Below are positions 11,340-30,914 of a DNA stretch of 64,000 bases, piece after piece (position 1 is the stretch's first letter; every line of letters starts with the position of its first letter). The notes under the pieces are model-generated. The model saw only the letters and a list, made by a program, of their open reading frames with translations, searched no databases and was not told the origin of the DNA. This stretch comes from an uncultured virus (IMG/VR IMGVR_UViG_3300009081_000011) (Duplodnaviria; Heunggongvirae; Uroviricota; Caudoviricetes), in IMG/VR virus record IMGVR_UViG_3300009081_000011; one strand, written 5' to 3'. The translations under genes and the position numbers were made by a program.

Positions 11340-11575
11340 GGGAAGTACGCGAACATCTGCTGCCCTGCGCGTACGTAGAGTGCCTCAGCGCTTCGTGTGT
11401 CGTGCTCCCATTCGGATCCGGTCCACCGCCACCGGTGGAGCCGTCGCACTCCGGGTGTGCCCCGTTCGATATCGGTCTCGTACCGCCAAAGCGTTTCGTC
11501 GTTGAGCAGCACGTACCCGTGCCATTGACCGCCGTTGTCGCGTTCGACCCACCAAATGTAGTAGGCCCAGTTCAT
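11336..11575 (-). CDS. Trp-rich hypothetical protein
   Basis: 79-aa ORF with ATGA coupling to the upstream gene. Confidence 0.5.
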   Translation of the reverse strand: MNWAYYIWWVERDNGGQWHGYVLLNDETLWRYETDIERGTPGVRRLHRWRWTGSEWEHDTRSAEALYVRAGQQMFAYFP

Positions 11576-12243
11576 CCTATGATCATCACGGTGAGCGTGA
11601 GCCCCCTGATCAGCATGTTCGCGGAGTCCGTGACGACCTTGGACAACACGGGTTGGATCGTGTCCCCACTCGTGAGCGACATCCTTCGTTGAGCCGTGGC
11701 GGTCGATGGGCTAGTGATCCCCGGATACTCGAGTCCCTGTCCCGCGCCCGCTGCTGCGGCGACAGTGCCAAACGTAGCTTGTCCGATGAGATCGCCGTTT
11801 TGTGCGATGCCGATCGCATAGACACGATCGCCCGATGCGGCATCTGGAGAGACCGCTTGTGAGAGCCACGAGATAACCTCGACGTCGGGACCCGTGTACG
11901 TGAGAATGCATCCGGCAGCGGTTAGTGAGAAGCGGCCAGCGAGATCGGGAGACAGCACGAAGTCGGTTCCGGTAATTCCGATGTACTGATCGCCCGGGTA
12001 CGGCGCCGTGGTGGTGTACTGTGTGGTTTGATCGTCGGTGACTTGGGCGGTTGCTACGCCTGGCGTGCCGGCAGGGCCTTCCGGGCCTTCTGCTCCGTCG
12101 GCCCCATCTGCGCCTGTGGGTCCGGTTGGTCCCGTGTCGCCTGGTGGCCCCTCAGATCCTGTTGGTCCGGCCGAACCGCCGCCGCTACTTCGTTCAGGGT
12201 ACGTTTCTCGCGCGTAGCTACGGCGGCCGACGATGTAGGCCAT
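11572..12243 (-). CDS. collagen-like spike/fibre protein with shared N-terminal motif and beta-rich head
   Basis: MAYIVGRRSYARETYPER, about 12 Gly-X-Y triplets, beta-rich C-terminus. Confidence 0.7.
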   Translation of the reverse strand: MAYIVGRRSYARETYPERSSGGGSAGPTGSEGPPGDTGPTGPTGADGADGAEGPEGPAGTPGVATAQVTDDQTTQYTTTAPYPGDQYIGITGTDFVLSPDLAGRFSLTAAGCILTYTGPDVEVISWLSQAVSPDAASGDRVYAIGIAQNGDLIGQATFGTVAAAAGAGQGLEYPGITSPSTATAQRRMSLTSGDTIQPVLSKVVTDSANMLIRGLTLTVMIIG

Positions 12244-12246
12244 TTT

Positions 12247-13833
12247 TTATCGGGTGATCTCTTCTACGAACTCGTCGATCGCGATGAGACCCGTGTTCCG
12301 GGTGTACGCCAGCGTGTGAACCCCAGCGGCGAGAGGACCAGAATCGAAAAGGAGAACGTTCAACTGTGTCGTAGCGTCTGTTTGCGTGATGATCTGCGGT
12401 GCGCCTCCGTCTAGAACGAGCGAGCCGGTACCAACGCCAGCACCCTTTCGTCCTTTCAACATCAGTCGCGTGCAATTAGCTCCGCTCGTGAACGTTTTCG
12501 AGTTCGCGGCGGTACTCGTGCGGCTCTCTGCGTATTCGAAAGCGCCGTAGACGGTCGAGCCCTGCTGCAAGCTCCAACCGGCGCCGACGGTGGCTATGTG
12601 CGAGTTGAGCCAGTTCGGATGGTAGTGGTTTTCGTAGACAGGAGGCAGGTTGTCCGTTTTGACGTTGATGAGCGCAGCGAGCCACGGAGAGAGGCCCGCG
12701 TTGGGCGAGCGAACTATGGACTGCTCTGTCGGCAAGATGTCACCGCTCTCGTCGGGCTCTTCTGCCGGGTGAAACCAAATCGCCTGGAGTGGCGAATAAA
12801 CCTTCGCGAATTGGATCGCGTTGCTGACGTGCCCTTCGATCTGCTCGTAGGTCGGGCAATCGACCCAGTTTCCAGGGTCGCCGACGTCGATGCGGGGGCG
12901 GCCGTCGTTTTTCACGGTCACGGCCGGGATAGTTTCGTTCGCGCCGTTGAGCGTCCAGAACTCGATGTCCTTGGCGATTTGATCGCTGTACGGTCGATGG
13001 GCTACGCCGAACGAGGTTTGGTTGGGCCCATAGAAGAACACGCCGTCTAGCCCCAGCGTCGTGACCATCAAATTCGTGTTGCCGTAGATCACGCCTCGGT
13101 TGAAAAGCGCCGCACGCAATTCGTTAACGCGTGTCTGATCCCACGCCGGTCCCGCTGAATCGAACAAGAACATGATCGGGCGGCCGTCGCTGGTCTTCCA
13201 GTGCATCTCGTGTTGTGTGAACGGGATCCAATACGGAAGAAAAACACTGGTGAAATTCAACCAAGTGCCGCCGGTCGGGGCTAGCGGGGGCAATTTCACT
13301 AGCGTTGTGTTGACGTCGTATGCCGCTTGCCCGGAGATGTTGACGAAGCAGAACTTCGGTTTGTTCGGGACAGTACTCGCGATGTAGAGATCGAACGGTC
13401 GCGTCAGAAACTGCCGGTTGTCGAGCGCTCCGCTCACGAGCACCAGATCTGGGTTCATGTACCAGTCGAATGCGAGCACCGTAACGCCGCCGTCTCTGTA
13501 TTTCTCGAGGATGTAGTCCATGTTCGCTTGGTCGACGGCAGCGTTGCCGGAGTCCAAGTATCGAAACGGAACGTCTCCAGCTCCGAGTTTGTCTCGGTAG
13601 CTGTAGTCCTCTTGCGCATCCGGATCAGCATCGTCCTGGAGCAGCGGAGAGACCTGAAACTGCTGCGACATGCCGCGCACGAGCGCGCCGGGCCAGAAAA
13701 CGCTGACCACCTCCAGATCGTTCGAATCGAAAGATACGATTGCTTTGTTGCAGCCTAGCGCCCCGATGGCCGCGAGCAGGACGCCCGCTAAACCAAACCA
13801 CCGGGGCGCTAGGCCGCTCTTGGTGGATCCCAT
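12247..13833 (-). CDS. lipoprotein-like glycoside hydrolase candidate with C-terminal beta-sandwich
   Basis: lipobox-like GALGC; AFDWY and KFCF segments resemble GH99/GH71-like barrels; CBM-like tail. Confidence 0.5.
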   Translation of the reverse strand: MGSTKSGLAPRWFGLAGVLLAAIGALGCNKAIVSFDSNDLEVVSVFWPGALVRGMSQQFQVSPLLQDDADPDAQEDYSYRDKLGAGDVPFRYLDSGNAAVDQANMDYILEKYRDGGVTVLAFDWYMNPDLVLVSGALDNRQFLTRPFDLYIASTVPNKPKFCFVNISGQAAYDVNTTLVKLPPLAPTGGTWLNFTSVFLPYWIPFTQHEMHWKTSDGRPIMFLFDSAGPAWDQTRVNELRAALFNRGVIYGNTNLMVTTLGLDGVFFYGPNQTSFGVAHRPYSDQIAKDIEFWTLNGANETIPAVTVKNDGRPRIDVGDPGNWVDCPTYEQIEGHVSNAIQFAKVYSPLQAIWFHPAEEPDESGDILPTEQSIVRSPNAGLSPWLAALINVKTDNLPPVYENHYHPNWLNSHIATVGAGWSLQQGSTVYGAFEYAESRTSTAANSKTFTSGANCTRLMLKGRKGAGVGTGSLVLDGGAPQIITQTDATTQLNVLLFDSGPLAAGVHTLAYTRNTGLIAIDEFVEEITR

Positions 13834-14591
13834 CTGAAATCGACGTCGTGATAATCCACGAGCGTTAGCCGCTGCGCTGTGCCTGCGCTGCGGATCTTGC
13901 TGCCACCTTCGGCAATCGCATTTGTCGGTAGCGCCGCGAGAGCGACGTCGCCGATCGACACGCCGTTGACGAGAAACCGAGTAGTCTGGGCAGGGACGCC
14001 GTTCCATGCGACGCCGGTGCCGTTGTGTCGAATCTCGAGCTCGACGAACGAACCGGCTACGACCGGAATGCTCGTACCGCCGGACGTGAGTGTCGGCACC
14101 GATGCCTTCATCGCAACACCACGCCAGTTTCCGCCCGAGAGGTTATCCGAGTACTCGAAGTACACACCGTCTGTTGGAGCGGCAGCGAGGCTGTTGATGA
14201 GTCCGTGTCGATCTGCGAACCTATCGCCCGCCGTACTGAGCGTGACTATGTTGACTTTGATCCGTTCGTGCCACCGTTGCCCGGCCCCGATGATTCGATT
14301 TGGCGTGCTCGATGCGAATCTCGCGTAGGCGGCTATGGCGTTCGTGCTCGTTACGGTCTCGAGCTGCAAGACACCTTGAACCGTCGTCGACTGGCCCGTC
14401 GTTACGAACGAAAGAGTTCCGTTGTTCGCGAAACTACCACGCCACCCTTTGCTGAAAACTGTGTTGACGGCGATTGCGGCGACACCGGTGCCGGCGTTGC
14501 CGCCCCATGTGAAATCGTCTTCTTCTATGAACTGTTCACGGGTACCTCGACCCATGAAGCCGCCCACTTGATCCGGTTGAACTAGTACCAT
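13809..14591 (-). CDS. beta-sandwich (ConA/LamG-like) virion protein
   Basis: Thr/Gly-rich beta protein; DGVYFEY, VELEIR, RFLVNG, LVDY. Confidence 0.5.
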   Translation of the reverse strand: MVLVQPDQVGGFMGRGTREQFIEEDDFTWGGNAGTGVAAIAVNTVFSKGWRGSFANNGTLSFVTTGQSTTVQGVLQLETVTSTNAIAAYARFASSTPNRIIGAGQRWHERIKVNIVTLSTAGDRFADRHGLINSLAAAPTDGVYFEYSDNLSGGNWRGVAMKASVPTLTSGGTSIPVVAGSFVELEIRHNGTGVAWNGVPAQTTRFLVNGVSIGDVALAALPTNAIAEGGSKIRSAGTAQRLTLVDYHDVDFRWDPPRAA

Positions 14592-14598
14592 TTGAGCC

Positions 14599-14946
14599 TC
14601 ACGAAGATGGTTGGTAGAAGATGGTGACGCGCCATCCTTCTACGAGACTTGGGTCTTCACTCGTCCAGGTGATCACGTTCCCGGCGAGATCCCAAAAATT
14701 CGAATCGTAGAAGAGGCCGTTCGCGAAAAAGATGATCCCTTCTTCCGAGGCCGGCGTGTCTGCCAGAATGAACTCGTTGATGTCCTCCTCGGACGAGACT
14801 GTGAAGGTCTCCGAGGTGTAGCCGAGCGCTCCGCCGTCTGCTCCGGTGGGCCCCTCTGGGCCTGTCGGTCCTGCGCCGCCACTTCCTCCGCCTCGTTCGG
14901 GATAGGTTTCCCTTGCGTAGCTTCTTCTCCCGACGATGTAGGCCAT
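14599..14946 (-). CDS. short collagen-like protein with shared N-terminal motif
   Basis: first 18 aa identical to the 11572-12243 protein; GPTGPEGPTGAD; small acidic beta domain. Confidence 0.7.
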   Translation of the reverse strand: MAYIVGRRSYARETYPERGGGSGGAGPTGPEGPTGADGGALGYTSETFTVSSEEDINEFILADTPASEEGIIFFANGLFYDSNFWDLAGNVITWTSEDPSLVEGWRVTIFYQPSS

Positions 14947-14961
14947 TTTTGCTCCTTGGCC

Positions 14962-15888
14962 TTAGACTTCGTTGATCGTGTTACTGATGAGCGTGACCGC
15001 TGTCTGCGCGAGCGCTCGGCCGTTGAGAACTGCGCCGGCTTGCATAGCGATTCCGGTTGCGCCCAAAATCTCCCCGTTGACCGTCACGCCCGGGAAGATC
15101 GTTACTTGCCCGGACACAGCCCAGAAAACGTTCTCCGGGAGGATGCCACCGACGAGTAGGACATCCTGTTGGATGTCCAGTGCGCCTAGCACTTGAATAA
15201 TGATTCCGTCTCCGACGCCGCCGTTGATTGTAAGAGGCCCCGCCGTGATGACCGATGCGCCAGTGTACCGATGCACGAATCCGGCTGTGAGCGGCGAGTC
15301 GGCGCTGATATCTCCGCCGACTGAAGTGAAGTCGGGCACCCGTCCGATGGCGTTGTTGTATGCAGCGATCATGTCGGCGCTGGCCTGCACGACCTTTGCG
15401 GGCGTCGGTACTGCATAATCCGGTGCGAACACCTGTCCGAGCTGTGGCGGTGGGCCAGGATCCACTTGAGCGGAAGTAGAGAACTGACCTCCGCCATCGA
15501 GCACGAGCGCGAATCCGGTAATGCTGGCGGCTGCGGCCGGGTTGACGCCCATGTCGCCGTTGACGTCTGATCCGCCAGTCGTGGTGATGCCCGACTGCGC
15601 AAAAATAGCGAAGTCCTCGCCTGTGCCCAAAGCAACGAATTGCGTCGGTGGCGGTGTCGGCGGCTCAGCTGCGCTCGGTCCTGTGACTGCGTTGTTCCTC
15701 AAGCTGATTGCTTGATCTCGAGGACGCGAAGCCCAGCTCCAACCCCCGTACTCGCTGTCGAAGTTGGGCGTGACGCCGAGATTTGCACGGTGGCGCTCCC
15801 GGTACTGTGCTTCGTCGATCAACTGTCGAGGTGCACCGTTCTCCGAATGCCCGCTCTTGTGTTTCAGGTTCTTGAGTTTGCGCCTCAT
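14962..15888 (-). CDS. ice-binding protein (DUF3494/IBP-like beta-solenoid) with basic N-terminal leader
   Basis: FAIFAQSGIT, GDMGVNPAAAASITGF, DMIAAYNNA.GR, NVFWAV, LNGRALAQTAVTL. Confidence 0.85.
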   Translation of the reverse strand: MRRKLKNLKHKSGHSENGAPRQLIDEAQYRERHRANLGVTPNFDSEYGGWSWASRPRDQAISLRNNAVTGPSAAEPPTPPPTQFVALGTGEDFAIFAQSGITTTGGSDVNGDMGVNPAAAASITGFALVLDGGGQFSTSAQVDPGPPPQLGQVFAPDYAVPTPAKVVQASADMIAAYNNAIGRVPDFTSVGGDISADSPLTAGFVHRYTGASVITAGPLTINGGVGDGIIIQVLGALDIQQDVLLVGGILPENVFWAVSGQVTIFPGVTVNGEILGATGIAMQAGAVLNGRALAQTAVTLISNTINEV

Positions 15889-16175
15889 GGGCCGTTCCTC
15901 GTTTCGTGTGGATCACCGAGCAGTCTCAACATCACGGCGTCGGCGAGTAGAGAGCAAAAACTTGTTGCGGCACCGACGACGTACATGTCGAGGGCTTTGC
16001 CGCGACCTAGAGTCACGACACCGAAGACACTCGCCCCCATTCCGACCCACATTCCGACGCACATGCTGCAACCGAAGAACGTAGGCCACACACGTCGGAT
16101 CGGATCGAAAATGGCGCCGCGCACGACGATGAGCGTCGTACCGACGAGCGCGAGAAGAAAAAAGAGGTGGTTCAC
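15885..16175 (-). CDS. small membrane protein (DUF1360-like)
   Basis: hydrophobic helices, IFDPIR and CSMCVGMWVG. Confidence 0.65.
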   Translation of the reverse strand: MNHLFFLLALVGTTLIVVRGAIFDPIRRVWPTFFGCSMCVGMWVGMGASVFGVVTLGRGKALDMYVVGAATSFCSLLADAVMLRLLGDPHETRNGP

Positions 16176-16702
16176 GGGGATGTGGCTTGGAATCTGGCGA
16201 GTTGCCAGATGAACAGGTTGGTGCCTTCGGCAAGGATGTTACCGTTGCCGCCTCCGGTAACCTCGATGCCCGGAACGAACAACACAGGCAGTAAGTGTCC
16301 GGGAGCTGGTGTTTCGGAACCGAATCGAACGGCAGACATGGTGGCGTTGACGGCCTGTAGCGCGGCAACGTCGGAAGCCGTCGCGTCTTCCTCTGATCCG
16401 GATCCTATTTGCAGGGAAATCCCCAACACCGTTGGCTCGACGTCGATGGAGACTTGTAACGTCGCCAAATACACGCCGAACGGCGTGAAAAAAATGCTCG
16501 TTGCGGCTTCTATTTCGAAATCTCCGAACGAAGCCGATTCGTAGACGACTGTGTCGAATGGGATGAACCTTGCAACCCCGTCGACGTAAGGCACATTGCC
16601 AGAGAGCCCCAACTGAGCGAACGGTTGCGCCGCGCCAGGCGATCCTGCCGCTCCACGCGGGTACGCTTCGGATTTGTGACCTGTTCTGCCAATGAGGTGC
16701 AT
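16172..16702 (-). CDS. C1q/TNF-like head protein with N-terminal motif variant
   Basis: MHLIGRTGHKSEAYP; IPFD...F...GVY pattern. Confidence 0.55.
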   Translation of the reverse strand: MHLIGRTGHKSEAYPRGAAGSPGAAQPFAQLGLSGNVPYVDGVARFIPFDTVVYESASFGDFEIEAATSIFFTPFGVYLATLQVSIDVEPTVLGISLQIGSGSEEDATASDVAALQAVNATMSAVRFGSETPAPGHLLPVLFVPGIEVTGGGNGNILAEGTNLFIWQLARFQATSP

Positions 16703-16709
16703 CGGTTGT

Positions 16710-16895
16710 TTACTTTCGTGAGGATAGAATCTCGACGAGACGAGTTGCCGTTTCCGGCTTGAGCTTGATCGTGCCGACTGATCCGATCTCGGCGTCGTCG
16801 TCGCTGATTTCGACGGAACCGTCTTCGAACACCTTCACGGTCGGGCACTTCTTGTACCCGCAACACATTGTCTCCTGGTGAATCAGATTGGGCAT
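16710..16895 (-). CDS. small Cys-containing protein
   Basis: 61 aa with RBS GGAG; MCCGYKKCP. Confidence 0.6.
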   Translation of the reverse strand: MPNLIHQETMCCGYKKCPTVKVFEDGSVEISDDDAEIGSVGTIKLKPETATRLVEILSSRK

Positions 16896-16905
16896 GGCTG
16901 GCTCC

Positions 16906-17430
16906 TTACCCTGTTGCCGGCATCAGCTCGTGAACATCGAGCGATGATGCGCCTGGATCTATGCTCAAGACGTCTGGGTTGTTCGCCGTGAGAATTACTT
17001 GAACGGTGGCTGTCACGCCTAGCGGCAATACAGATCCGTTGGTGAATACATTCACTTCAGTGAGGATGGGGATCAAAATATACCCAGATGCCGACAGCGT
17101 CGGTTCTGGGTTGAATGGGATGAACAACAGTTCGCCGTTGACCGCGACATGCACTGTCAACAATTCTTGGATCCCAGAGGAGCTTTTGACGCCGATGACG
17201 CCGATGATGCGCACCACGCCGGTGACACGCGGAGTAATCGGCACAGTCACCCCTGCCACTCCGACGTCCAAGCTTTGCCACGGGACCGATGTGGGCGATG
17301 TGAGAATCGGAGTGACGTTTTCCGGGCCAAACGCCGCGTTGCGCGCCAGCATTCCTGCCGCCGCACCACGTGGCGTTTCTGGGTAGGAGTGGTAACGCGT
17401 GCCTATGGCGTGGTTGATGAATTCGCTCAC
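16906..17430 (-). CDS. beta-sandwich virion protein, paralog of 17684-18223
   Basis: IGTRYHSYPE motif; LARN..GP..VPW..VPIT.RVTG aligns with the paralog. Confidence 0.65.
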   Translation of the reverse strand: MSEFINHAIGTRYHSYPETPRGAAAGMLARNAAFGPENVTPILTSPTSVPWQSLDVGVAGVTVPITPRVTGVVRIIGVIGVKSSSGIQELLTVHVAVNGELLFIPFNPEPTLSASGYILIPILTEVNVFTNGSVLPLGVTATVQVILTANNPDVLSIDPGASSLDVHELMPATG

Positions 17431-17672
17431 TGCCGTTCTCTCATGTGCGCCGCACGCTTCGCCCCGGTCAGTTCTTCAGGCGTCATGGGCACCAATCTGT
17501 TGGCGACGAGGAAGCTCAACTGCACTGTGCCTCGTCGCGTAGACAAGAGGCGCTCGACCGTCTTCTCCCAGTCGGCGTACACGAGAGCTTCGCCGTTCCA
17601 CTCCGGAGAATCGAAGTAGTCTTTGCAAGCGTGAGCCGCTTCGAGCTGAGCCTTCGTGATGACGACTTGCAT
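17427..17672 (-). CDS. hypothetical protein
   Basis: 81-aa ORF coupled to the downstream gene. Confidence 0.55.
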   Translation of the reverse strand: MQVVITKAQLEAAHACKDYFDSPEWNGEALVYADWEKTVERLLSTRRGTVQLSFLVANRLVPMTPEELTGAKRAAHMRERQ

Positions 17673-17683
17673 GGATGCCCTTT

Positions 17684-18223
17684 TTACTGCGCGTTCGTAA
17701 TTTCCTGAATCTCGATCGTGCTCGAAGCCGCTACCAACTGCACCAAAGGCGTTGGTTCGTCGTCGGCGCTCACTAACACTTGAACGTTGAACGCAGTGCC
17801 GACGGGCACGCCCGGCGCTACCGCAACGACGATCGAGAAAGGGATCGCCATTGTGCTCACACCCTCTGCCACTGCTCCGTCGATCAACGATCTCAGGTCT
17901 GCAGGCACAGGAAGTGAAACGCCGTTGATCTGGATCTCCACCTGAACGTTGACCGGATCCGACGAGGTGTTCTCCAGGGCGACTACGCCCGAAATGAGAA
18001 GCTTTCCTGTAACGTGCGCCGTGACAGGTACGTCCGTGCTAGGGACGCCGGTGCTTTCGATCACGTTCCATGGAATTTGAACGCCAGCAATTGGAACGTC
18101 TGTGTCTGCCAGCGGTCCCGACGCGAAGTTTCGCGCGAACGCGGCTACGTTTGGGCCTCCGGCGCCTGCGCGGGCCTCTGGGTACGTTTCGGCCGCGAAT
18201 TTGCGACCCATTCTGTGTGCCAT
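17684..18223 (-). CDS. beta-sandwich virion protein with N-terminal ETYPE motif
   Basis: MAHRMGRKFAAETYPE; paralog of 16906-17430. Confidence 0.65.
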   Translation of the reverse strand: MAHRMGRKFAAETYPEARAGAGGPNVAAFARNFASGPLADTDVPIAGVQIPWNVIESTGVPSTDVPVTAHVTGKLLISGVVALENTSSDPVNVQVEIQINGVSLPVPADLRSLIDGAVAEGVSTMAIPFSIVVAVAPGVPVGTAFNVQVLVSADDEPTPLVQLVAASSTIEIQEITNAQ

Positions 18224-18226
18224 GGT

Positions 18227-19492
18227 TCAACGCCTCTTTCTGCTCGAACTTTTGCGACGTGTTGGCCCGCGCGAGCCGCGCTTGCCTCGAGAGCCGCGGG
18301 CGCCCCTCTTGCCGCCCGTCACTGCGACGGCGACGACGCCCACGAGCGCGAGCGCGCCAATGGCGCCGGCCACGATGGCGCCGGTCGAAATCTTCTTTTC
18401 GGATCCGACGACGATCGGCTGCCCGGGGGTTGGTGCAAATGGCGGAGTAACCGGCACCGTGACCGTCGGGGTCGGCTCCGGGGGCCTCGGCGGAGGCGTC
18501 GGGACTGTTGCGCCGCTTGGAGTGTTGCTCGACCCTGGCGGCGCCCACCATGCCGGGCGAGGGCTACACCCTGCCGGTGCGCTCGGGAGCAGTCTCCGAG
18601 CGGCAGTAGCGGTGTTGTCCCCGTACTTTCCGTCGGGGGAGACGCCGAGCGCCCGCTGGGCAGCGTAGACGATGTCGAGGCTCGACTGATCGCACGGATT
18701 GATCGTTGCGAGCGCCGCTACGGGCGCCGGCACCGTGACCTGCGTGACAGACGGCGTAGGCGCCGGCATTGACGAGGGCGGGGTGAATGAAGGTGGCGGC
18801 ACTGGAGATGCGCCGGGGCAGTTCGATTGCCCTGCCGGTTTCCACCACGACGGCCTAGGGCTGCACGGACCTGGGGCATTTGGATCCACACGGCGCGCAG
18901 CGGCGGCCGTATCTTTCCCGTACTTACCGTCGACGGTGACTCCGAGAGTGCGTTGCGCTTCGCAAATGTGTGCGACGTTCGTCGGATCGCATGGATCGAG
19001 AAACGACGAGCTCGAGGGTGCGGTTGTCGCAGTGACAGGTGCCGAAGCCGTTGGAGCGGCGCTGCCTGGGCATTTGTTCGATCCCTTCGGCGCCCACCAT
19101 GCAGGCGTGGGGCTACATCCGCTGGGCGCACTCGGCACGAGAGCGCGCAACGCCGCCGCGGTCACACTTCCGTACTTTCCGTCGACCGTCACGCCGAGAA
19201 TGCTTTGGATCTGACAGACGTAGCCGACGTTCGCTTGGAGGCACGGGCCGCCCGCGATCATGAGAAGGTTCACCACGTCGGCCGCTGGATCGCCTAGTCC
19301 GAACGAGGAGCCGATCGTGCCGCCGACCGGCACGTTGATCGCTTCAAGTGGCGTGAGGGATTTCCAAGTGCGCTGCCCCGCAACGACCCTCGTAGGCTTG
19401 TGCGGGTTGGCGTTGATGAGCGTGTTCATCGGGATGCCGTACGCGCGAGCGATGCGCGACGGGCTATCCCCTGGTTTTGTCTGGTACCGCAT
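18227..19492 (-). CDS. LysM protein with three Cys-rich peptidoglycan-binding-like repeats, TM anchor and basic tail
   Basis: YQTKPGDSPSRIA..LINANP; three LGV(T/S)(V/P)DGKYG..TA.A repeats; C-terminal hydrophobic helix followed by Arg/Lys. Confidence 0.8.
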   Translation of the reverse strand: MRYQTKPGDSPSRIARAYGIPMNTLINANPHKPTRVVAGQRTWKSLTPLEAINVPVGGTIGSSFGLGDPAADVVNLLMIAGGPCLQANVGYVCQIQSILGVTVDGKYGSVTAAALRALVPSAPSGCSPTPAWWAPKGSNKCPGSAAPTASAPVTATTAPSSSSFLDPCDPTNVAHICEAQRTLGVTVDGKYGKDTAAAARRVDPNAPGPCSPRPSWWKPAGQSNCPGASPVPPPSFTPPSSMPAPTPSVTQVTVPAPVAALATINPCDQSSLDIVYAAQRALGVSPDGKYGDNTATAARRLLPSAPAGCSPRPAWWAPPGSSNTPSGATVPTPPPRPPEPTPTVTVPVTPPFAPTPGQPIVVGSEKKISTGAIVAGAIGALALVGVVAVAVTGGKRGARGSRGKRGSRGPTRRKSSSRKRR

Positions 19493-20464: not shown

Positions 20465-20697
20465 GGGAACCCCAACATTCGAAGAGGCGGCCCAGAGACG
20501 CCGATTTCTTTCTTTTCGTCGACCTTCGTCACGGTCACGCCGATGAACGTGGCGACCACAGCACCGACGGCGCCGCCAATCGCCCCCGCCGTCACGCGAT
20601 CACCTCTGATGTAGAAAGCGTCAGCGAAGACGTCGGCCGCGAGCACGCCCGCAGCGCCACCGAGACCAGCAAGCAGAATCGTTCCGCCCGCGCTCAT
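20461..20697 (-). CDS. small Gly-rich membrane protein
   Basis: two Gly/Ala-rich TM helices. Confidence 0.6.
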   Translation of the reverse strand: MSAGGTILLAGLGGAAGVLAADVFADAFYIRGDRVTAGAIGGAVGAVVATFIGVTVTKVDEKKEIGVSGPPLRMLGFP

Positions 20698-22252: not shown

Positions 22253-22282
22253 GTGCTTAGCTGACGCTACTCGTTGTTCGGA

Positions 22283-23599: not shown

Positions 23600-23658
23600 T
23601 TTGATTTTTCCTTCTTTCCCCGCCGTTTCTTGTGCCGACGCGGGTCGAATCCTTCTGA

Positions 23659-23718
23659 CACCTCAACCCCGGGGTTCGAGACCTACCGGGGCTGAGGTGG
23701 GGGCTTTTTTCTCAGCCC
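23659..23718 (-). promoter_or_regulatory. structured RNA element in the leader of the capsid candidate
   Basis: 14-bp stem at 23659-23699 (one G-U) and a competing 8-bp stem at 23689-23718. Confidence 0.5.
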
Positions 23719-25364
23719 ATTTTCATGAGCGGTTCCTCGGAGCCGAGTCCGAGGAATGCGCTGTACTGATCGCCTTCACCGATGCATCCGCACGAGGCGC
23801 TATCCTCGCCCGGTATCGCTCGCGGCCCCGGGCCTTGTCCCGCGGGCGGACCTGGCTCGTAGCCCACGCCGGCCGCGCGCCGAAGCGCTTGGTCGACGTT
23901 CGCGTAGGGCGAATCACCGCTGACGCCGGCCGCGCGCCTGAGCGCATCGGAAGCGCTCGCGTACGGCGAGTCGCCACCGACGCCCGCCGCGCGCCGAAGC
24001 GCCTGAGCAGCGTCCGGATACGGCGAGTCACCCGAGAGTGCGAACGGGCCCACGTCGGGGTTACCGGAGAGAACACCGGCCGGGTTGTAAGGCCCGGGCA
24101 GCGTCTTACCGTCAGCGCCCTTCTGCGCGTCCATGTTGATCTTCGCCGCGACCTCGGCTGGGTACAGACGAGCGATGACGTTCTTCTGTAGTGCCGGCGC
24201 CGAGGTGTCCTTGCCGATGAGCATCGGCAGTAGGACGTTGTTCACGAGCAACTTGAACGCATTGACGCCTGCACCGAGAGCCATGCCCTCGAGCGCCCGC
24301 TTCGCTGTTCGGTTTCGGATGAACGACGAACCGACCGCGGGGACCGCGACCATGCCGACGCTCGCACCGGCGCGTACCCAGCCGGGCATGCGCGCGATGT
24401 TGAGCGTGTTGGCGAGTGTGCCGGCGCCGTCGGACGTGAACTTGTCCTTCGGTCGTTCGCCGGTCGAGCTCGGGTCGTAGGTCGCGAGGAAGCGATCGAG
24501 CCCGTCCGCGAGGACGAAACCTAGACCTCCCGCGAGCACCGCCGTACCGAGCTCCATCGCGCTGCCCATCACTGAGGCGCGCATGTAGCGACGCCGCGGA
24601 CGACTCGAGCGAACCACGCTCGTCGCGCGAACGTGACGACGGCGACGACGGCGACGCGGTGCCGCAACCTCTGCGACCGCGCGCACACGACGACGCCTGC
24701 GCTTGCTCGACCGGCGCTTCTTGCGCCACCCTTTGCGAGCGGCCTTTCGATGACCAGCGGAGTTGCCGCGCCATGCTTTGACCGGCGCGGCGCGCATCCG
24801 ACGACGCCGACGCCTGCGGCGAGGTGCCGCGACGGCGACCGGCGCACGACGACGGCGAGCCGCCTTCACTTCGACGCGCACCCGACGCCGACGACGGCGA
24901 GTTGCGACTGCACGAGCTTTGCGCGCTCGGCGCCTACGACGCTTCGGAGCGGGAGCTGACTTCCTGGAACGGCGCCGACGACGCTTGGCTGCAACTTTTG
25001 TTCTGGCCATTGTCCTATTTTCTCCTGAACTTTCTCGTGCAACGACGGCGCGGATCCCGCGTCCGAACGGAATGGTGCGACTTACCGCCGAACCTTTGGG
25101 GTTGAACTGACGAATGCGAACGTACTGTTCGGTGACGTCCGCCTTCCCGTGCTTGTAGCCGTGAGACTTCGCCCACTCCTTGGCCTTGCTCGGCGTCCAG
25201 CCGGCGCTGCGACTGAAGAGCAGCGACTGCGGGCGCATCGATTTGCGCGGTGTCTCGACGGGAGCGGGACGTCGCGCAAAAATCGATCGAAACATCGGCC
25301 GCCTCGCGCCACGACCGCGTCGTGATTCACTGAGGTCTGCCAACCGATCGTCATAAAGGCCCAT
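23712..25364 (-). CDS. Arg-rich (protamine-like) core protein with membrane segments and C-terminal repeats
   Basis: about 140-aa tract of poly-Arg runs, hydrophobic helices, three GDSPY repeats; start uncertain, with an RBS-preceded internal ATG at 25010. Confidence 0.7.
   Translation of the reverse strand: MGLYDDRLADLSESRRGRGARRPMFRSIFARRPAPVETPRKSMRPQSLLFSRSAGWTPSKAKEWAKSHGYKHGKADVTEQYVRIRQFNPKGSAVSRTIPFGRGIRAVVARESSGENRTMARTKVAAKRRRRRSRKSAPAPKRRRRRARKARAVATRRRRRRVRVEVKAARRRRAPVAVAAPRRRRRRRRMRAAPVKAWRGNSAGHRKAARKGWRKKRRSSKRRRRRVRAVAEVAAPRRRRRRRHVRATSVVRSSRPRRRYMRASVMGSAMELGTAVLAGGLGFVLADGLDRFLATYDPSSTGERPKDKFTSDGAGTLANTLNIARMPGWVRAGASVGMVAVPAVGSSFIRNRTAKRALEGMALGAGVNAFKLLVNNVLLPMLIGKDTSAPALQKNVIARLYPAEVAAKINMDAQKGADGKTLPGPYNPAGVLSGNPDVGPFALSGDSPYPDAAQALRRAAGVGGDSPYASASDALRRAAGVSGDSPYANVDQALRRAAGVGYEPGPPAGQGPGPRAIPGEDSASCGCIGEGDQYSAFLGLGSEEPLMKMG
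23862..24032 (-). repeat. three tandem 57-nt (19-aa) coding repeats
   Basis: GDSPYxxxxxALRRAAGV(G/S) three times. Confidence 0.85.
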
Positions 25365-25612
25365 GTCACGGCTAGGCAACAGGCTTTCAATACGTATTTG
25401 TCGAGTCAACAACGCCCGCGAAGCTTGCGCGTCCCCCGGGCGTGGTTACTGTCGAAGCGCTTCAACAGCCAAGAGACAATCGCCCGTAGAAACAACAACA
25501 CGAACGAACAGTTACGTGCGGTTCGGTTTGGCGTCCTGAACAAAAATGTGCGCGCGATTACCCGTCGACGCCGTTCTCGGATTCGTTTAACGCTCGGTGT
25601 ACGCGCGTTTTA

Positions 25613-26257
25613 CTATCGGATCCACGGATAGCGCAGATCGAGCGCCGCAGACGGGTTTCCGAGCGCTCCCGCCATGCCGACGAAGTCTCCTTCGCCGCTC
25701 ACTTTCGCTTGCTTGCCCGGTTCGACCCAAAACTCACGCATGCTCGGTGGCGCTTTGCCGATTGGAAGTTTCGTGGTGCCGTCCATGCGCACCCAATCTC
25801 CCAGATCATCTTCGAACGCCATGTAGACGTGCGACGGAACATCGAACGGTTGCTTGTGACTCGAGCCGATGATCATCGCCGGGATCCCGATCGACATCAT
25901 CGCTGCGGCGAGAGTGATCGAGTGCTCGTCGCAATCACCGCCGACGACGCACAAGCCGCCCTCATCGAGACACAGCACTTGATTCGGCGTTGCCATGAAC
26001 TCGCCCATCACAGGGTCAGCAATGTACGGAACCTTTTTTCGGAAAGCGTTGAGGACGCATTGCGCTTTCTGACGACGGCCGCCAGTAGACATGCCGCACT
26101 TGTCGAGCTCTTGCGTCACCCACGCACGAAGTCGCGGACTCATTCGTGCGACCCACGCACGGTCGGCTACTTCCTGGAGAGATAGACGGGCTCCTTTGCC
26201 GCCCGACGGGTGCGGGCGAGCAACGGTTTGAACTCCTGGAACCGGCTTGTCGATCAT
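25613..26257 (-). CDS. transglutaminase-like (papain-fold) Cys-His-Asp enzyme
   Basis: VPYIADP, GDCDEHSITLAA, SHVY, WVRMDGT. Confidence 0.8.
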   Translation of the reverse strand: MIDKPVPGVQTVARPHPSGGKGARLSLQEVADRAWVARMSPRLRAWVTQELDKCGMSTGGRRQKAQCVLNAFRKKVPYIADPVMGEFMATPNQVLCLDEGGLCVVGGDCDEHSITLAAAMMSIGIPAMIIGSSHKQPFDVPSHVYMAFEDDLGDWVRMDGTTKLPIGKAPPSMREFWVEPGKQAKVSGEGDFVGMAGALGNPSAALDLRYPWIR

Positions 26258-26946
26258 CTTCGTTTTCCTGTCGCTAGGTAGATAGCGCCGGCTACCGCGC
26301 CAGCGCCGACGAGCGCAACACCAACGACTTGACCTGCACTGATCCTTTTTTGGGCTGGCGGTAGGGCAATACGAGTAGGAACGCGCGGCGCTGTTGTCGT
26401 CGCAGTGCGCGGCGGACATGGCGCGTAAGCTTCCCCGAGTATGAGACGCATCGCCTCGGCGGTTTGCAGTTCGTAGTTACCGGTGTTGATAGGTACCGGA
26501 GGCGTCTGCTCCGCGTTCCATGCAACTTTGAAATCGTGCACGGCCGAGTTCACAGACGAACCGACTCGCGCCACTTGAGCGCAATCGTCGTCGAAACCGA
26601 GAACAGCGTCGGCGCGCTTCGCTGCGGCTATGAGAGCGTCGGAGTATGCCGCTGCGAGTCCAACGCCCGGCTTTTTACCGGGCGTGACACCGTCCGCGTA
26701 AGGAAGCGCTTCGAAGTAGGATTTCGGGAGTTCGTCGAACTCTTTCGACCACCACTTGTCTGGAAGGTTCAACTTCTCGCCGGCATCGAGCTCACGAAAC
26801 GTTACGTAGCCGTTCGGGTAGGTGAGTGTCGGCTTGTGCGGGTTCGCTCGAATCAAATCGATCGAACACTTGGGGCATCCCGCCATTTCGTCCTGAGAGG
26901 CGATGCTCGCAGGACTGTCGCCGGGCTGCACTTCGTAGACGCGCAC
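26254..26946 (-). CDS. LysM-domain membrane-anchored protein
   Basis: YEVQPGDSPASIA..LIRANPHKP, paralogous to the N-terminus of 18227-19492; ISAG-TM-TGKRR. Confidence 0.75.
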   Translation of the reverse strand: MRVYEVQPGDSPASIASQDEMAGCPKCSIDLIRANPHKPTLTYPNGYVTFRELDAGEKLNLPDKWWSKEFDELPKSYFEALPYADGVTPGKKPGVGLAAAYSDALIAAAKRADAVLGFDDDCAQVARVGSSVNSAVHDFKVAWNAEQTPPVPINTGNYELQTAEAMRLILGEAYAPCPPRTATTTAPRVPTRIALPPAQKRISAGQVVGVALVGAGAVAGAIYLATGKRR

Positions 26947-26956
26947 CCCAGAAAGA

Positions 26957-27145
26957 TTACACGAATTCGCGCTGTGGCTGGTGCACGATTGGCCCGTCGT
27001 CCCCAACCAGGCGGATCCCCTCGCTTTCGAGCTGCATTCGCAAGATAGGGTTCTTCAAGAGTTTCGAAAGCTTTTTAGCGTGCGCGTCAGCCTCTTGCTC
27101 GTTCTGCGCAAGAACCTCGATGCTCACCAGAATGCGGTATCTCAC
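26957..27145 (-). CDS. hypothetical protein
   Basis: short ORF with GTGA coupling. Confidence 0.5.
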   Translation of the reverse strand: MRYRILVSIEVLAQNEQEADAHAKKLSKLLKNPILRMQLESEGIRLVGDDGPIVHQPQREFV

Positions 27146-28704
27146 GGCTCTTCCCACCCTCGTTGGGGTGCCGGTTCATCTTCTATAGGCGGCGGTACGT
27201 GCGCGGGCGGCGGTGGAAGATCCTGCTCCCTCATCCGAGCCGTTTGTCGCATCGGCACAGCTACGAACCCTTGAGGGGGCTCATAACCTTCGACCACTCG
27301 AACGTAGCCCGGCGGAAGTTGTTGCTGTTCTGTCTGTTCGCGTCGTTGCCGTTCTGCGGCTGCTGTCTTGCTGATCTTGTCGACGTACTCGCCACCCTTT
27401 TTGAACATCTCGGGCAAATTGATGAGGAGCGTATCCCAGCCTCTGATGTTGCCGTCCTGGCGCCCGTAGATAATCTTACCGTTCCCCGTGTCGACGACTT
27501 CGATTGGGCTATCCGGATCTTGCGCAGCGGTCTCGTCGAACCGTTGTCCGCCGTTGTGTTGCCCGCCTCCAAGAAGCGAATCGAGTTCTTCTCTGAGCGC
27601 CATAGCTCTTCGAATGGTGCTCATCGACTCGCGCAAAGGATCGGGCGGTCCTTGGTTCGGACGGGCGTAGGGGTCTCGCTCTCGAGCATATTGATCGCGC
27701 TCGTGCGGTTCGCCTCGCGGCGCATAGTAAGGAGGACGCTCGCGCTGGTGGTCTCGAGACATCGGAGATCTTGGGTTGTTCACCGGTTCGAGTACGCAAC
27801 AGTTCGACTCGGGTAGCCATCGATACACGTAGCCGGGCGGAGCTGGCGTGTTCGGGAGATTCGGCACCGTCGGTGCGGCCGTCTGCGAATGGGCGACCGG
27901 CGCAGGCGCCGGTTGCGCTTGGCGCACGATCGCGAACATTTCCTGAAACCACTTCATCATCGAAGCAGGATCGGGATTCGTTGGTGGTGGCGGCATGGAT
28001 GGTTGGTGCGGTTGTTGAGCCCACACAGGTGCGGGTTGCGTCTGCGGTTGCACCGATTGAACCAACTCGAACATCTGGCGAAACATCGACATCGGATCGG
28101 GTCCGGGGGGTGGCGATCCTTGTTGAGGCGCTTGTGGCGACGGATACCCTTGGTGAGGCGTTCCGTTCAACGGTGACCAGTGCGGCGGCTGCCCTTGATA
28201 CGGCGCGCGTGTATCCTTCATCACAATTTTCCCTTTGCCGCGCCATTCTTTGGTGGTGGCGTCGAAGAACTCGACTTCGTAGGCAGCTTCGCCGCACTGC
28301 CCGTGTGCGGCTTTGATTTCTTCAAAGAGCTCGGTTGGTGAACGAGGGAAGCTCGTGATCACGTCCGTCGTTTCAGGGCCACCGCTCAGTCGTCGCACCT
28401 TGACGTGGATCGTGCTCGTAGGCCACGCTTCTAGAAGCCCTGCGTATTTTACGAGCGGATCGTTCGTGCTGAACGAAGCTTTTTCGCCTGCGCGTATCTT
28501 CGCAGCAACGGTGCTCGTTTGTCTTTTTTGCCTGACGGTTTCGGCGTCGATCGCGCCTATCTTGCGAATGTTCTCTATCGGGGCTTGAAGCTCGCCGTTT
28601 TCATCTGCCTCCGCACCGACCTCTTCCACGATGTCGGCTTCGGTATCTTGTGCAGGCACTCCGTGTGCCCGATTAACGGGTTGGCCGTCTTTTCGTGCTG
28701 CCAA
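27142..28704 (-). CDS. Pro/Gln-rich protein with folded N-terminal part
   Basis: 520 aa; two PDP..M..(W/M)F.(Q/E)MF amphipathic motifs within a low-complexity region. Confidence 0.7.
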   Translation of the reverse strand: MAARKDGQPVNRAHGVPAQDTEADIVEEVGAEADENGELQAPIENIRKIGAIDAETVRQKRQTSTVAAKIRAGEKASFSTNDPLVKYAGLLEAWPTSTIHVKVRRLSGGPETTDVITSFPRSPTELFEEIKAAHGQCGEAAYEVEFFDATTKEWRGKGKIVMKDTRAPYQGQPPHWSPLNGTPHQGYPSPQAPQQGSPPPGPDPMSMFRQMFELVQSVQPQTQPAPVWAQQPHQPSMPPPPTNPDPASMMKWFQEMFAIVRQAQPAPAPVAHSQTAAPTVPNLPNTPAPPGYVYRWLPESNCCVLEPVNNPRSPMSRDHQRERPPYYAPRGEPHERDQYARERDPYARPNQGPPDPLRESMSTIRRAMALREELDSLLGGGQHNGGQRFDETAAQDPDSPIEVVDTGNGKIIYGRQDGNIRGWDTLLINLPEMFKKGGEYVDKISKTAAAERQRREQTEQQQLPPGYVRVVEGYEPPQGFVAVPMRQTARMREQDLPPPPAHVPPPIEDEPAPQRGWEEP

Positions 28705-28736
28705 AATTCGCTCTCTAATCTCTCTCGATGAGGTTT

Positions 28737-29183
28737 TCAGGGCGACGGCTGCCCGTTTGGCGGCGCGTCCGCAGCCGGTGTCGAATCGGGCACCTCATCA
28801 CCGTCGTCGGGAACGTCGTCGTTGTCTTCGTCGTCGTAGACGTAAGGATCGTCACCCGCCGCGGAGGCGTTGATTTCTTCGGCCAAAACTTCGAGAGCCA
28901 TCTGCTCGTGTGCGAGCCGAACCCGACGCATCGGGATGGTGTCTCTTGCCCCTACCGCGTTGTTACGAGACGTCGAGTAGACGTACACCGCGACCGCGTT
29001 GCGACTGATGAACATGGCCTCTACATGCATGCTGGGCATGAAGGGATGCGGTTTGCCAACGACCCAGTTCACCGTAGGGCCCTTGCTGTTGCTGTTCTCG
29101 GGATCGAGATTGTCGGTAACGAGCAGCCTGAGCTCGGGCGGCGGCAGCTCTTCGGGATTTGTCGGCACGTTCGGCATCGTCAT
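28737..29183 (-). CDS. hypothetical protein with acidic tail
   Basis: 148 aa, coupled to the JAB gene. Confidence 0.6.
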   Translation of the reverse strand: MTMPNVPTNPEELPPPELRLLVTDNLDPENSNSKGPTVNWVVGKPHPFMPSMHVEAMFISRNAVAVYVYSTSRNNAVGARDTIPMRRVRLAHEQMALEVLAEEINASAAGDDPYVYDDEDNDDVPDDGDEVPDSTPAADAPPNGQPSP

Positions 29184-29809
29184 AGTTGGCCGTCCTCCAA
29201 GAACGAGTAGTAGCTGGGTCGTTTCGAATCGCCAGCTATGATGACGTGATCAAGAAAACGTATTCCAACGGCTTCGATCGCATCGGCGAACGCTTCGGTC
29301 GTCTCTTCGTCCGCTTGGCTTGGCTCGGCCTCGACGCCGGACGGATGACAGTGAAAAAGAATCGCGCCGCCGCCTCCGCTAACTACCGCGGCTCTGACCG
29401 TCGGCGTTACGGGCGCCATCACACTCGACGCCTCACCTCGGCCGGTCTCGGTGTACCCTTTCAAACGGCCGTGAATGTCGAGCGTCAAAACACCGAAGAC
29501 TTCTTCGTTCTCGTTACCGAGATAGTCGAAGAGGAACTCGGCGACCTTCTTCGGGTCGTTGAGCGGTCCGATCTTGTCGGCTAGCGCATTGCAGGCTGCG
29601 AAACGATGCTCGTCCTTCTCGACTCTCAAAAACGGGCGGCAGCCGCTACCGCTACCGCTATCGAGCTCGACTTCTTCGATGTCACGCGCGAGCCGAGGGC
29701 GCGGCGCACGTAGCGGCGTACGCACCCTAGGGCGCAAGAACGGATTCTGCCGCGCTCGCGGCGGCTCGCGACACTCACATGCCGAGCGATTCGAACGCAG
29801 ATGAAGCAT
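29180..29809 (-). CDS. radC: RadC-like JAB/MPN+ domain protein
   Basis: EVFGVLTLD, HCHPSG..PSQAD, FLDHVII. Confidence 0.85.
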   Translation of the reverse strand: MLHLRSNRSACECREPPRARQNPFLRPRVRTPLRAPRPRLARDIEEVELDSGSGSGCRPFLRVEKDEHRFAACNALADKIGPLNDPKKVAEFLFDYLGNENEEVFGVLTLDIHGRLKGYTETGRGEASSVMAPVTPTVRAAVVSGGGGAILFHCHPSGVEAEPSQADEETTEAFADAIEAVGIRFLDHVIIAGDSKRPSYYSFLEDGQL

Positions 29810-30211
29810 TCAGACCGGAGCTCCTGCGACGACGTTAGTGTTGCCGTTTGCCGTCTTCGGGGTCGCGCCGAGCGACTTTGCCGCGTCCGGCGAATCGAAC
29901 GAGACGAAGTCTTTACCGCTCGCAGTTTGGATCAATAGCTCATCGAGCGTCACGTCCGTCACGAAGAGAGCAATGTCTTTTTCTTCGGCCATGGGCAGGT
30001 AGACCATGCCAGCGTCGAGCACGATCTGCCTGAGCGTCGTCACGATCAACAGATCGCCGACCTTGACGCCTTTGGCCGCCGCATCGGGGCCAACAGCGTC
30101 TACGAGGACGAATTTCGTGACCTTCGATTCGTCGATCCGAATGATTTTCGATTCGGATCGACGAATGGTCATGCGGCCGATGATCTGACTGCCTCTGGGA
30201 GCAAATTTCAT
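29810..30211 (-). CDS. GroES-like co-chaperonin
   Basis: MKFAPRGSQII, SKII, AVGP..VKVGD, EKDIAL; about 45-aa C-terminal extension. Confidence 0.65.
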   Translation of the reverse strand: MKFAPRGSQIIGRMTIRRSESKIIRIDESKVTKFVLVDAVGPDAAAKGVKVGDLLIVTTLRQIVLDAGMVYLPMAEEKDIALFVTDVTLDELLIQTASGKDFVSFDSPDAAKSLGATPKTANGNTNVVAGAPV

Positions 30212-30711
30212 TGTGTTTTTTCCTCTAGCTGCGGTTCGGCAGTGGTGTGCACGAGACGCTTCGGTGTCAACTCGTCCGGCGGCGAAGGAACAACAACGCC
30301 TGCGCGCCGGAGTGCTTCACGTAACGCCTCGTTCTCCATTCGCGTCGTCTCGAGCTCTACGAGCACTTCACTGAAGTACTCGCGACTCGGGGCGAAGTAC
30401 GTTCCCTCTGCGGGCTTCCTCGCGTCCTCGGGGACGCGCGCCCTGGCTGTGTTCAGGATGACGAGCGCGCTCATGCGCACTTCGCGATCAGGGCAACTTC
30501 CGAGACACGGCTCCGTTTCGTTCTTCTCGCCAGCGCAACCCTCTGCGTGCTGACACCGTTCGAGGATTTCAACGGTCCCGTGTTTGACGATCTCCCACGA
30601 GACCTTGTTGCGCCAGAGCGCGAGCTTTAGGGCGTTCCAGTTTCGAACCGAAACGGGCACCTTTTGATCGCCGGGGTTCTCGAAACCCATCATCCCGCGT
30701 GGAGTCGTCAT
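30208..30711 (-). CDS. hypothetical protein with Cys cluster and coiled coil
   Basis: CQH..CAG..CLGSCPD. Confidence 0.6.
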   Translation of the reverse strand: MTTPRGMMGFENPGDQKVPVSVRNWNALKLALWRNKVSWEIVKHGTVEILERCQHAEGCAGEKNETEPCLGSCPDREVRMSALVILNTARARVPEDARKPAEGTYFAPSREYFSEVLVELETTRMENEALREALRRAGVVVPSPPDELTPKRLVHTTAEPQLEEKTQ

Positions 30712-30914
30712 GTGAGTGCCCCGTTCGGCTCGCGGATGCGAATTCGTGAATCGATAGGTGTCGGCTTTGGATGGTTGGCAACCTGAAGAAGCACCGTTCG
30801 CATCCACGCACTCGTGCTTACCTTGCAGCGTTCAGCGCGTTGTTCGATCATTCGGTACTGTTCAGGGGTGAATTTGAGGCCCACGAACTTCGTCTTGGAC
30901 GAACCGTTTACCAT
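30708..30914 (-). CDS. ribbon-helix-helix regulator
   Basis: FVGLKFTPEQYRMIEQRAE...STSAWMR. Confidence 0.65.
   Translation of the reverse strand: MVNGSSKTKFVGLKFTPEQYRMIEQRAERCKVSTSAWMRTVLLQVANHPKPTPIDSRIRIREPNGALT

Follow-up and report, generated by a model that had tools for sequence, protein, structure and literature searches.

The 64,000-nucleotide stretch of the uncultured virus record IMGVR_UViG_3300009081_000011, called the window here, contains a block of 28 open reading frames (ORFs) at positions 11572-30914. All of them are located on the minus strand, and 97% of the block is coding. This region is probably the virion module of a large tailless double-stranded DNA virus of bacteria with a jelly-roll shell. 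Eleven junctions of the block are overlaps, mostly of 4 bases, eleven are gaps of at most 15 nt, and only five gaps are longer than 15 nt. Three of these five flank the genes for a protein of 438 amino acids (aa) and for an Arg-rich protein. The 22 junctions that overlap or leave no more than 15 nt agree with the about 19 kb of co-oriented, coupled genes reported in a preliminary description of this DNA. Shine-Dalgarno-like sites were present upstream of 12 of 29 starts, that of the 438-aa gene included. The G+C content is about 60% along the whole length of the window. Scans for promoters and terminators between 19000 and 32000 gave no signal above the shuffled background, and a search for tRNA genes found none.

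Only a part of the block is conserved. Of the 32 related loci in IMG/VR, 19 belong to contigs of 70 to 125 kb, and homologues of the 438-aa, a 200-aa and a 299-aa protein, the three shell candidates, were found in this order in all 32. Twenty-two loci were "full-flank" loci, meaning that both 10-kb flanks were present. All 22 carry the same six genes, which encode the three shell candidates, the Arg-rich protein, a transglutaminase-like protein and the tail-anchored protein at 26254-26946. Four more genes occurred in 18 to 20 of the 22 loci, and the genes between 11572 and 19492 in 0 to 16 of them. Because the latter genes are variable, the conserved core of the block is 19497-30914, and this part is kept across the family. 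Its features are listed below, with locus counts referring to the full-flank loci.

19497..20162, minus strand: tail-anchored membrane protein (by hydropathy) with an FGIG motif; 20/22 loci
20159-20464 and 20461-20697, minus strand: two small membrane proteins (by hydropathy), the first with one hydrophobic segment and an N-terminal FGLG, the second with two segments
20694..21593, minus strand: conserved 299-aa protein; its start overlaps the stop of the 200-aa gene
21593..22195, minus strand: 200-aa protein, predicted single jelly roll, candidate for a second shell or vertex protein
22283..23599, minus strand: 438-aa main shell candidate, predicted jelly-roll core with large insertions; FGLG at residues 31-34
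23712..25412, minus strand: Arg-rich protamine-like protein with membrane-type hydrophobic segments and a C-terminal FLGLG; 22/22 loci
25613..26257 (25613-26419 in the Pfam scan), minus strand: transglutaminase-like Cys-His-Asp protein, candidate maturation protease; Transglut_core 1.4e-5; 22/22 loci
26254..26946, minus strand: tail-anchored membrane protein (by hydropathy) with a C-terminal transmembrane segment and a basic tail; 22/22 loci
26957..27127, minus strand: small protein of 56 aa; 19/22 loci
27142..28659, minus strand: Pro/Gln-rich protein of 505 aa, no family match; 20/22 loci
29180..29725 (29180-29809 in the scan), minus strand: RadC-like protein of the JAB metalloprotease fold; PF04002 1.1e-23, phrog_10276 1.5e-21; 18/22 loci
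30708..30914, minus strand: NikA-like DNA-binding protein of the ribbon-helix-helix type, encoded by the gene that opens the block; PF21983 4.1e-8; 15/22 loci

When 27 ORFs of the block were compared with PHROG and Pfam, only six kinds of matches appeared: collagen, Ice_binding-like, LysM/peptidoglycan-binding, Transglut_core, RadC-like JAB and NikA-like.

The jelly-roll fold of the 438-aa and the 200-aa proteins is well supported by structure prediction, in agreement with the jelly-roll capsid candidate and the beta-rich neighbor named in the preliminary description. The model of the 438-aa protein, calculated from a 76-sequence alignment, possesses 18 strands, a predicted local distance difference test value (pLDDT) of 86.4 and a predicted template modeling score of 0.83. 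Foldseek searches with this model against PDB and BFVD returned nothing at or below 1e-3, and the weak rows contained papillomavirus L1 and CRESS or parvovirus capsids. A second structural comparison gave scores of 6.4 for PRD1 P3 (158 aligned residues, root mean square deviation 6.0), 5.9 for SGIV, 5.8 for STIV, 5.5 for SPV1 and 5.2 for vaccinia D13. No HK97-fold coat protein, which would have spoken against the first interpretation of this DNA, was among the structural matches listed for this model. The structural alignments comprised at most about 160 residues, yet they were spread over residues 38-433. The preferred reading is one jelly-roll core with large insertions.

The 200-aa protein was modeled from a 29-sequence alignment as an eight-strand sandwich with flanking helices (pLDDT 84.5). 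Its top Foldseek rows, with E values between 3e-3 and 1e-2, were SPV1 (E 3.1e-3, probability 0.96), HHIV-2 (E 3.4e-3, probability 0.97) and SH1. The VIA scores of this model were 7.1 for PHM, 6.9 for EhV-201, 6.8 for PBCV-1, 6.1 for the STIV penton and 5.9 for FLiP; the comparison with SPV1 scored 6.4 and extended over the largest part, 139 of 178 residues. The nearest ESM Atlas cluster with a Pfam assignment carries PM2 P2_N/P2_C (score 0.76) and is a lead only. No usable match of the 299-aa protein was found in the ESM Atlas, and none of its searches against Pfam, PHROG or PDB profiles gave a match. Pairwise comparison with hhalign revealed no relation among the three shell candidates, and PDB sequence and profile searches with them produced nothing below E 0.38. 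None of the three, nor the protease-like protein, had a sequence match in 50,697 deposited phage records. A kinship of the 438-aa or 200-aa protein to any single known family is not supported by the models, for which the structural scores are mediocre when judged by the standard of the tool itself.

The virus could also be tailless with a true shell made of another protein with a new fold, for instance the 299-aa or the 505-aa protein, and the two jelly-roll proteins would then serve at vertices, at spike bases or in bridging the membrane. In favor of this view, all loci of the family encode the 299-aa protein, and it lies outside the fold modeling. Nevertheless, this arrangement seems unlikely, because no protein of the family is better conserved than the 438-aa protein, which is also among the most codon-biased ones, and because its position and its own intergenic spacers fit a major structural gene. 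Its family is also the widest one among the three shell candidates, with more than 428 homologues at 65 to 82% identity on contigs of up to 150 kb. Among 1.84 billion representative proteins, 180 clusters (50% identity) were found at E ≤0.001 and 119 at ≤1e-10.

Residues 126-300 of the Arg-rich protein contain 74 Arg plus Lys residues compared to 5 Asp plus Glu residues, which gives these 175 residues a net charge of about +69, and hydrophobic segments follow. The Arg-rich core protein of the preliminary description was thus confirmed in its composition. In the transglutaminase-like protein, C109, H143 and D159 were invariant in 20 of 20 homologues. At least seven proteins of the block possess hydrophobic segments, and three of these (18227-19492, 19497-20162 and 26254-26946) are tail-anchored with basic tails, which would be an indirect sign of lipid in the particle. 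The small membrane proteins that had been noticed before were found again by hydropathy, with three segments in 15885-16175, two in 20461-20697, one in 20159-20464 and the C-terminal anchors in the three proteins just named, two of which were analyzed as the ORFs 19497-20237 and 26254-27006.

A short motif, FG[LIV]G, occurs nine times (eight distinct sites) in the ORFs of the window, compared to 1.6 expected occurrences and a maximum of five in 200 shuffles. The sites are in 22283-23599, 18227-19492, 19497-20162, 20159-20464, 23712-25412, 2837-4270 and 31549-32382. The motif is positioned near the N terminus of the 438-aa protein and of the membrane proteins and at the C terminus of the Arg-rich protein, often with basic residues before it and Asp, Ala or Pro after it. 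Within the motif of the 438-aa protein, G32 and G34 reach 90% conservation or more across the 76 aligned sequences. The motif is also present in two of the relatives with terminal repeats, G003 and G005, their 438-aa homologues included. Its role could be that of a cleavage site for a protease or of a tag for sorting or addressing.

Three relatives with terminal repeats stand in for a complete genome: G003 (124,600 bp, 127-bp repeat), G005 (116,275 bp, 87-bp repeat) and G007 (111,461 bp, 127-bp repeat). All three are probably circular. The closest of them is G007, which has 50 of the 106 ORFs of the window in common with it. The virus family is widespread, with genomes of 77 to 125 kb. Bacterial hosts are indicated by LysM, PG_binding, Amidase_3, M23 and lysozyme domains and by the Shine-Dalgarno-like sites. 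Short contigs with only the viral block were binned into metagenome-assembled genomes labeled Candidatus Binatia and Polyangiaceae, plus one weak fragment (L050-L053), and this binning is a weak host hint at best. No integrated copy with bacterial flanks was found among the genome contigs matched.

The variable part of the block and a lysozyme gene outside of it contain the following features, with locus counts as above.

18227..19492, minus strand: protein with LysM (4.7e-7) and repeated peptidoglycan-binding domains (PG_binding_1 8.1e-8), a C-terminal transmembrane segment (residues 367-385) and a basic tail; 16/22 loci
16172..18223, minus strand: variable spike-like proteins with a common N-terminal motif (16172-16702, 16906-17430 and 17684-18223) and small ORFs between them; 0 to 11 of 22 loci
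15885..16175, minus strand: small protein with three transmembrane segments; 14/22 loci
14962..15888, minus strand: Ice-binding-like beta-helix protein, spike or adhesin candidate; PF11999 4e-45; 12/22 loci
11572..14946, minus strand: variable outer part with a collagen-like fiber (11572-12243), a short fiber (14599-14946) and two window-specific proteins; 0 to 5 of 22 loci
4746..5351, minus strand: peptidoglycan-cutting lysozyme; Phage_lysozyme2 PF18013 1.9e-23

The spikes of the preliminary description are borne out by the collagen repeat of 11572-12243 (Collagen 2.6e-6), the Ice_binding-like fold and an N-terminal motif in five proteins. This peptide, hIGRGRYxxE[AT]YP, heads three proteins of the window when the pattern is applied strictly and two more by eye. 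The five proteins (11572-12243, 14599-14946, 16172-16702, 16906-17430 and 17684-18223) are otherwise unrelated, and the first 18 residues of 11572-12243 and 14599-14946 are identical. The peptide also heads five proteins in G003, five in G005 and one in G007, usually before a Gly-rich or collagen-like sequence. This would fit interchangeable fibers with one docking peptide. PHROG "tail fiber" matches of 11572-12243 were limited to the collagen-like part, and the Phage_lysozyme2 domain, as in 4746-5351, occurs inside PHROG tape-measure families.

Outside the block, one gene is a candidate for a DNA packaging function.

268..2055, plus strand: HerA/FtsK-type P-loop ATPase, the only candidate packaging motor; outside the block and not conserved in the family

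This protein matched DUF87 (4.1e-6), AAA_10 and TrwB_AAD_bind in Pfam and HerA chains in PDB down to 1.9e-8, and it alone among the ORFs of the window has a canonical Walker A motif. It also matched phrog_2666 (3.2e-21), which is labeled "terminase large subunit." This label should be considered generic for P-loop ATPases of the superfamily, because the profile matched 14 of 14 control cellular genomes. A Pfam scan of the window ORFs gave no match to the A32/P9-type ATPase family. More than 800 full-length homologues of the HerA-like ATPase exist on contigs of similar size. In ten relatives, BLAST matches to it were strong in three and weak in one. A six-frame search of G005 (116 kb) with a profile of 115 homologues revealed no copy, the best hit being a 118-aa fragment (E 0.0011). 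In G007, the gene at 14700-15695 encodes a 78% identical protein, but an in-frame TGA ends it at about residue 310. As a conserved packaging motor, the HerA-like ATPase was rejected, since it is missing from G005, interrupted in G007 and located outside the conserved block. By gene content, the family is thus one that has no detectable conserved packaging motor.

The same ATPase, with its AAA_10 and TrwB_AAD_bind matches, needs to be considered together with two NikA-like proteins in the window, ParB and a tyrosine integrase in the relatives, many membrane and peptidoglycan-binding proteins and circular-type assemblies. All of these would also suit a non-viral mobile element, a large plasmid or an integrative element, with a block that builds a cell-surface or DNA-transfer structure. 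Such an element is improbable here. Relaxase, VirB4 and other secretion families did not turn up in the scans of the window and the relatives, and a conjugative apparatus was rejected on the finding of no relaxase or VirB-type family; the ATPase is missing from G005. A particle is consistent with the presence of a protamine-like protein next to strongly conserved jelly-roll proteins, the best structural matches include many virus coats, and the nucleotide metabolism and replication genes are phage-like.

In the scans with PHROG and Pfam, which comprised 99 ORFs of the window (27 of the block and 72 others), no portal, HK97 capsid, tube, sheath or tape-measure family and no classical TerL family was found. 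For the portal, capsid and tail genes, the statement that they are lacking from the 64 kb could therefore be kept, although the HerA/FtsK-type ATPase with its match to a "terminase"-labeled profile had been overlooked. The search was extended to the three relatives. The PHROG scan of G003 comprised 148 of 153 called genes and then the 5 genes located at the joins between pieces plus 46 uncalled ORFs of at least 400 nt. For G005, it comprised 140 of 144 called genes and 10 uncalled ORFs and then the 4 genes at such joins and 40 further uncalled ORFs. The 144 ORFs of the G007 scan were 132 of 158 called genes and 12 uncalled ORFs of at least 150 aa. In these scans, no classical terminase (including TerL), portal, HK97 capsid, tube, sheath or tape measure was found. 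Such genes beyond the window would have spoken against a tailless virus, and the three relatives (111, 116 and 125 kb) contained none of these families. TerL_ATPase (PF03354) and Terminase_6N (PF03237) matched in none of five relatives, compared to 3 and 5 of 14 control genomes, respectively.

The matches of the relatives that are filed under "tail" or "head" were to collagen Gly-X-Y repeats, NUDIX, lysozyme-type domains, phrog_20556 and the HerA-like ATPase. The match to a "portal" family was the NUDIX part of a NUDIX protein; those to "baseplate hub," "tape measure" or endolysin families covered only the lysozyme-type domain, and a 478-aa protein of G003 had one N-terminal "baseplate protein" match (phrog_20556, 6e-10). 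A tailed phage with head, tail and terminase genes that are too diverged for the profiles or that are located in the remaining contig, and with jelly-roll proteins as decoration, fiber or receptor-binding parts, is highly unlikely: large ORFs without family match are present (43922-45724, 45737-48154, 2837-4411 and 12247-14007), as are a Phage_lysozyme2 domain and collagen-like fibers, and jelly-roll domains are known in tail fibers, with 9rkv and 8ke9 among the structural matches, but the large unmatched ORFs are not kept in G003, G005 and G007, which would be expected of head genes, the jelly-roll block contains the genes that the family conserves most, and a terminase large subunit does not usually escape detection, yet, apart from the generic profile phrog_2666, none was found in the window or in the three relatives. 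The scans detected no packaging machine of tailed phages, and the family does not conserve the HerA-like ATPase; therefore, encapsidation is probably independent of a conserved motor.

The remaining genes of the window are partly of phage type. In the 72 further ORFs, a family A DNA polymerase, a Dam methylase, a dCTP deaminase, an amidase and an M23 peptidase were recognized by PHROG and Pfam, and the same scan revealed a cluster of glycosyl- and methyltransferases. The polymerase is the PolA protein (60253-62115; PF00476 5.3e-18, phrog_17 7.7e-45) that had been named before together with a superfamily 2 helicase and RuvC; neither of the latter two families was recovered in the scanned ORFs of the window, even at E 0.1. 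The PolA protein had no BLAST match in G003, G005 or G007. The replication genes of the relatives differ from it, with a primase or primase-polymerase in G003 and G005 and another phrog_17 polymerase plus a sigma factor in G007. Replication modules are swapped within the family. Integrases, ParB, thymidylate synthase, helicases and primases are carried by the relatives.

Adjoining the particle block, the region 5840-10649 encodes three S-adenosylmethionine methyltransferases and glycosyltransferases, among them a GT2 protein with TPR and one GT7C-like protein. The 655-aa GT2 protein is kept in G003 and G005. These enzymes may glycosylate virion proteins. A rhomboid-family membrane protease (52512-53069, 8.5e-23) is kept in G005 and G007. 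A plus-strand trio of genes at 38115-41342, for proteins of 132 aa, 372 aa (with a DUF6926 match) and 227 aa, is kept in G003, G005 and G007 outside the particle block. The two small NikA-like ribbon-helix-helix proteins are located at 10595-10813 and 30708-30914, and the latter opens the conserved block.

Taken together, the gene content of the region was confirmed in part as it had first been described, and its interpretation as the virion module of a tailless jelly-roll virus is supported as far as computation reaches. In such a particle, the two predicted jelly-roll proteins of 438 aa and 200 aa, together with the translationally coupled 299-aa protein, would build an icosahedral shell. 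The shell would surround a lipid vesicle that bears the tail-anchored and small membrane proteins of the block, and the protamine-like, membrane-anchored Arg-rich protein would condense the genome against this membrane. The Cys-His-Asp transglutaminase-like protein could be a maturation protease, possibly cutting at FG[LIV]G. Interchangeable fibers and spikes would dock by their common N-terminal peptide, and the peptidoglycan-binding and -cutting proteins may act in entry or exit.

Several points weigh against this interpretation. "Tailless" and "membrane-containing" are deduced from gene content, and the structural similarities behind them are weak. The contig is listed at 77,559 bp and the scans covered the 64-kb window, so that the other 13.5 kb are outside of it; the gene calling was home-made. 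Outside the scans were also uncalled ORFs below about 130 aa in G003 and G005 and, in G007, called genes below 60 aa, 22 called genes of at least 60 aa (for example, L057:7933-8169:+) and uncalled ORFs below 150 aa. The single barrel of the 438-aa protein is a tentative reading from alignments, which settle neither the number of barrels (one or two) nor their orientation, and the predicted jelly-roll folds are those of the 438-aa and 200-aa proteins, with the 299-aa protein outside that modeling. Finally, genes of plasmid type are present as well: ParB and integrase in the relatives, the two NikA-like proteins and the AAA_10/TrwB-like ATPase.

A more far-reaching proposal is tentative and should be regarded with some doubt. 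According to it, the family would be a new high-rank lineage of bacterial viruses, in which a protamine-like protein with a membrane anchor wraps genomes of 80 to 125 kb and the jelly-roll shell assembles around the condensed genome without a packaging motor. If true, this would be a third route of particle building for large prokaryotic DNA viruses, besides that of the tailed phages and PRD1-type pumping. To our knowledge, all well-studied bacterial viruses above about 45 kb are tailed phages that pump DNA through a portal. The family, with 80 to 125 kb, a jelly-roll shell and no conserved packaging ATPase, would break this rule. If confirmed, the plan of a jelly roll with an internal membrane would scale to large genomes of bacterial viruses, and a bacterial model for protein-condensed genomes would be available. 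It would also mean a blind spot in virus detection pipelines that are built on terminase, portal and HK97 markers. At the level of abstracts and passages, no description of bacterial jelly-roll viruses of such a size was found in the literature.

Among known systems, adenovirus possesses the core proteins pVII and pre-mu and the cysteine protease adenain. The likeness would concern the working principle only, which is an Arg-rich condensing protein beside an enzyme of the cysteine protease type and a short Gly-containing motif near protein ends. In contrast to adenovirus, the enzyme here is transglutaminase-like and not adenain-like, and the Arg-rich protein possesses membrane segments. Viruses of the Tectiviridae or PRD1 type are tailless, membrane-containing particles with vertex spikes and virion-associated peptidoglycan enzymes. 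The 438-aa protein could be aligned over no more than 158-159 residues, and a true double jelly roll is not demonstrated for it because this length corresponds to about one barrel. Prokaryotic Preplasmiviricota have genomes below 50 kbp according to the abstract of PMC11071308.

The viruses HHIV-2, SH1, HCIV-1 and P23-77 of the Helvetiavirae, which are now placed in the realm Singelaviria (passages of PMC12714852), are tailless icosahedra that contain an internal membrane, and their coat proteins, with single vertical jelly rolls, are the products of adjacent genes (passages of PMC5332951 and PMC12714852). The coat chains of HHIV-2 and SH1 were among the top Foldseek matches of the 200-aa model. 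The core of the single-jelly-roll viruses is given in passages of PMC5332951 as two coat proteins, a membrane protein and a packaging ATPase, whereas the HerA-like ATPase of the window is missing from G005. The largest cultured virus of the Helvetiavirae build that was checked is the unclassified Salisaeta phage SSIP-1. Its 43,788 bp exceed the 10 to 20 kb that the preliminary description had given for cultured tailless membrane phages, and the genomes of the family described here are two to three times larger still. Profiles of the three shell candidates found nothing in SSIP-1.

SPV1 of the Portogloboviridae (PDB 6oj0) has a jelly-roll shell, an inner lipid layer, a nucleoprotein core, a genome of about 20 kb and a hyperthermophilic archaeal host (abstract of PMC8459092). 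Its nucleoprotein core fits the Arg-rich protein, and its genome is circular. It differs in its size of about 20 kb and its archaeal host from the 77 to 125 kb and the bacterial-type peptidoglycan domains found here, and there is no sequence similarity. With no sequence link to SPV1, Singelaviria or the PRD1-type viruses and no conserved ATPase, the family differs from all three in its larger genome and its bacterial host.

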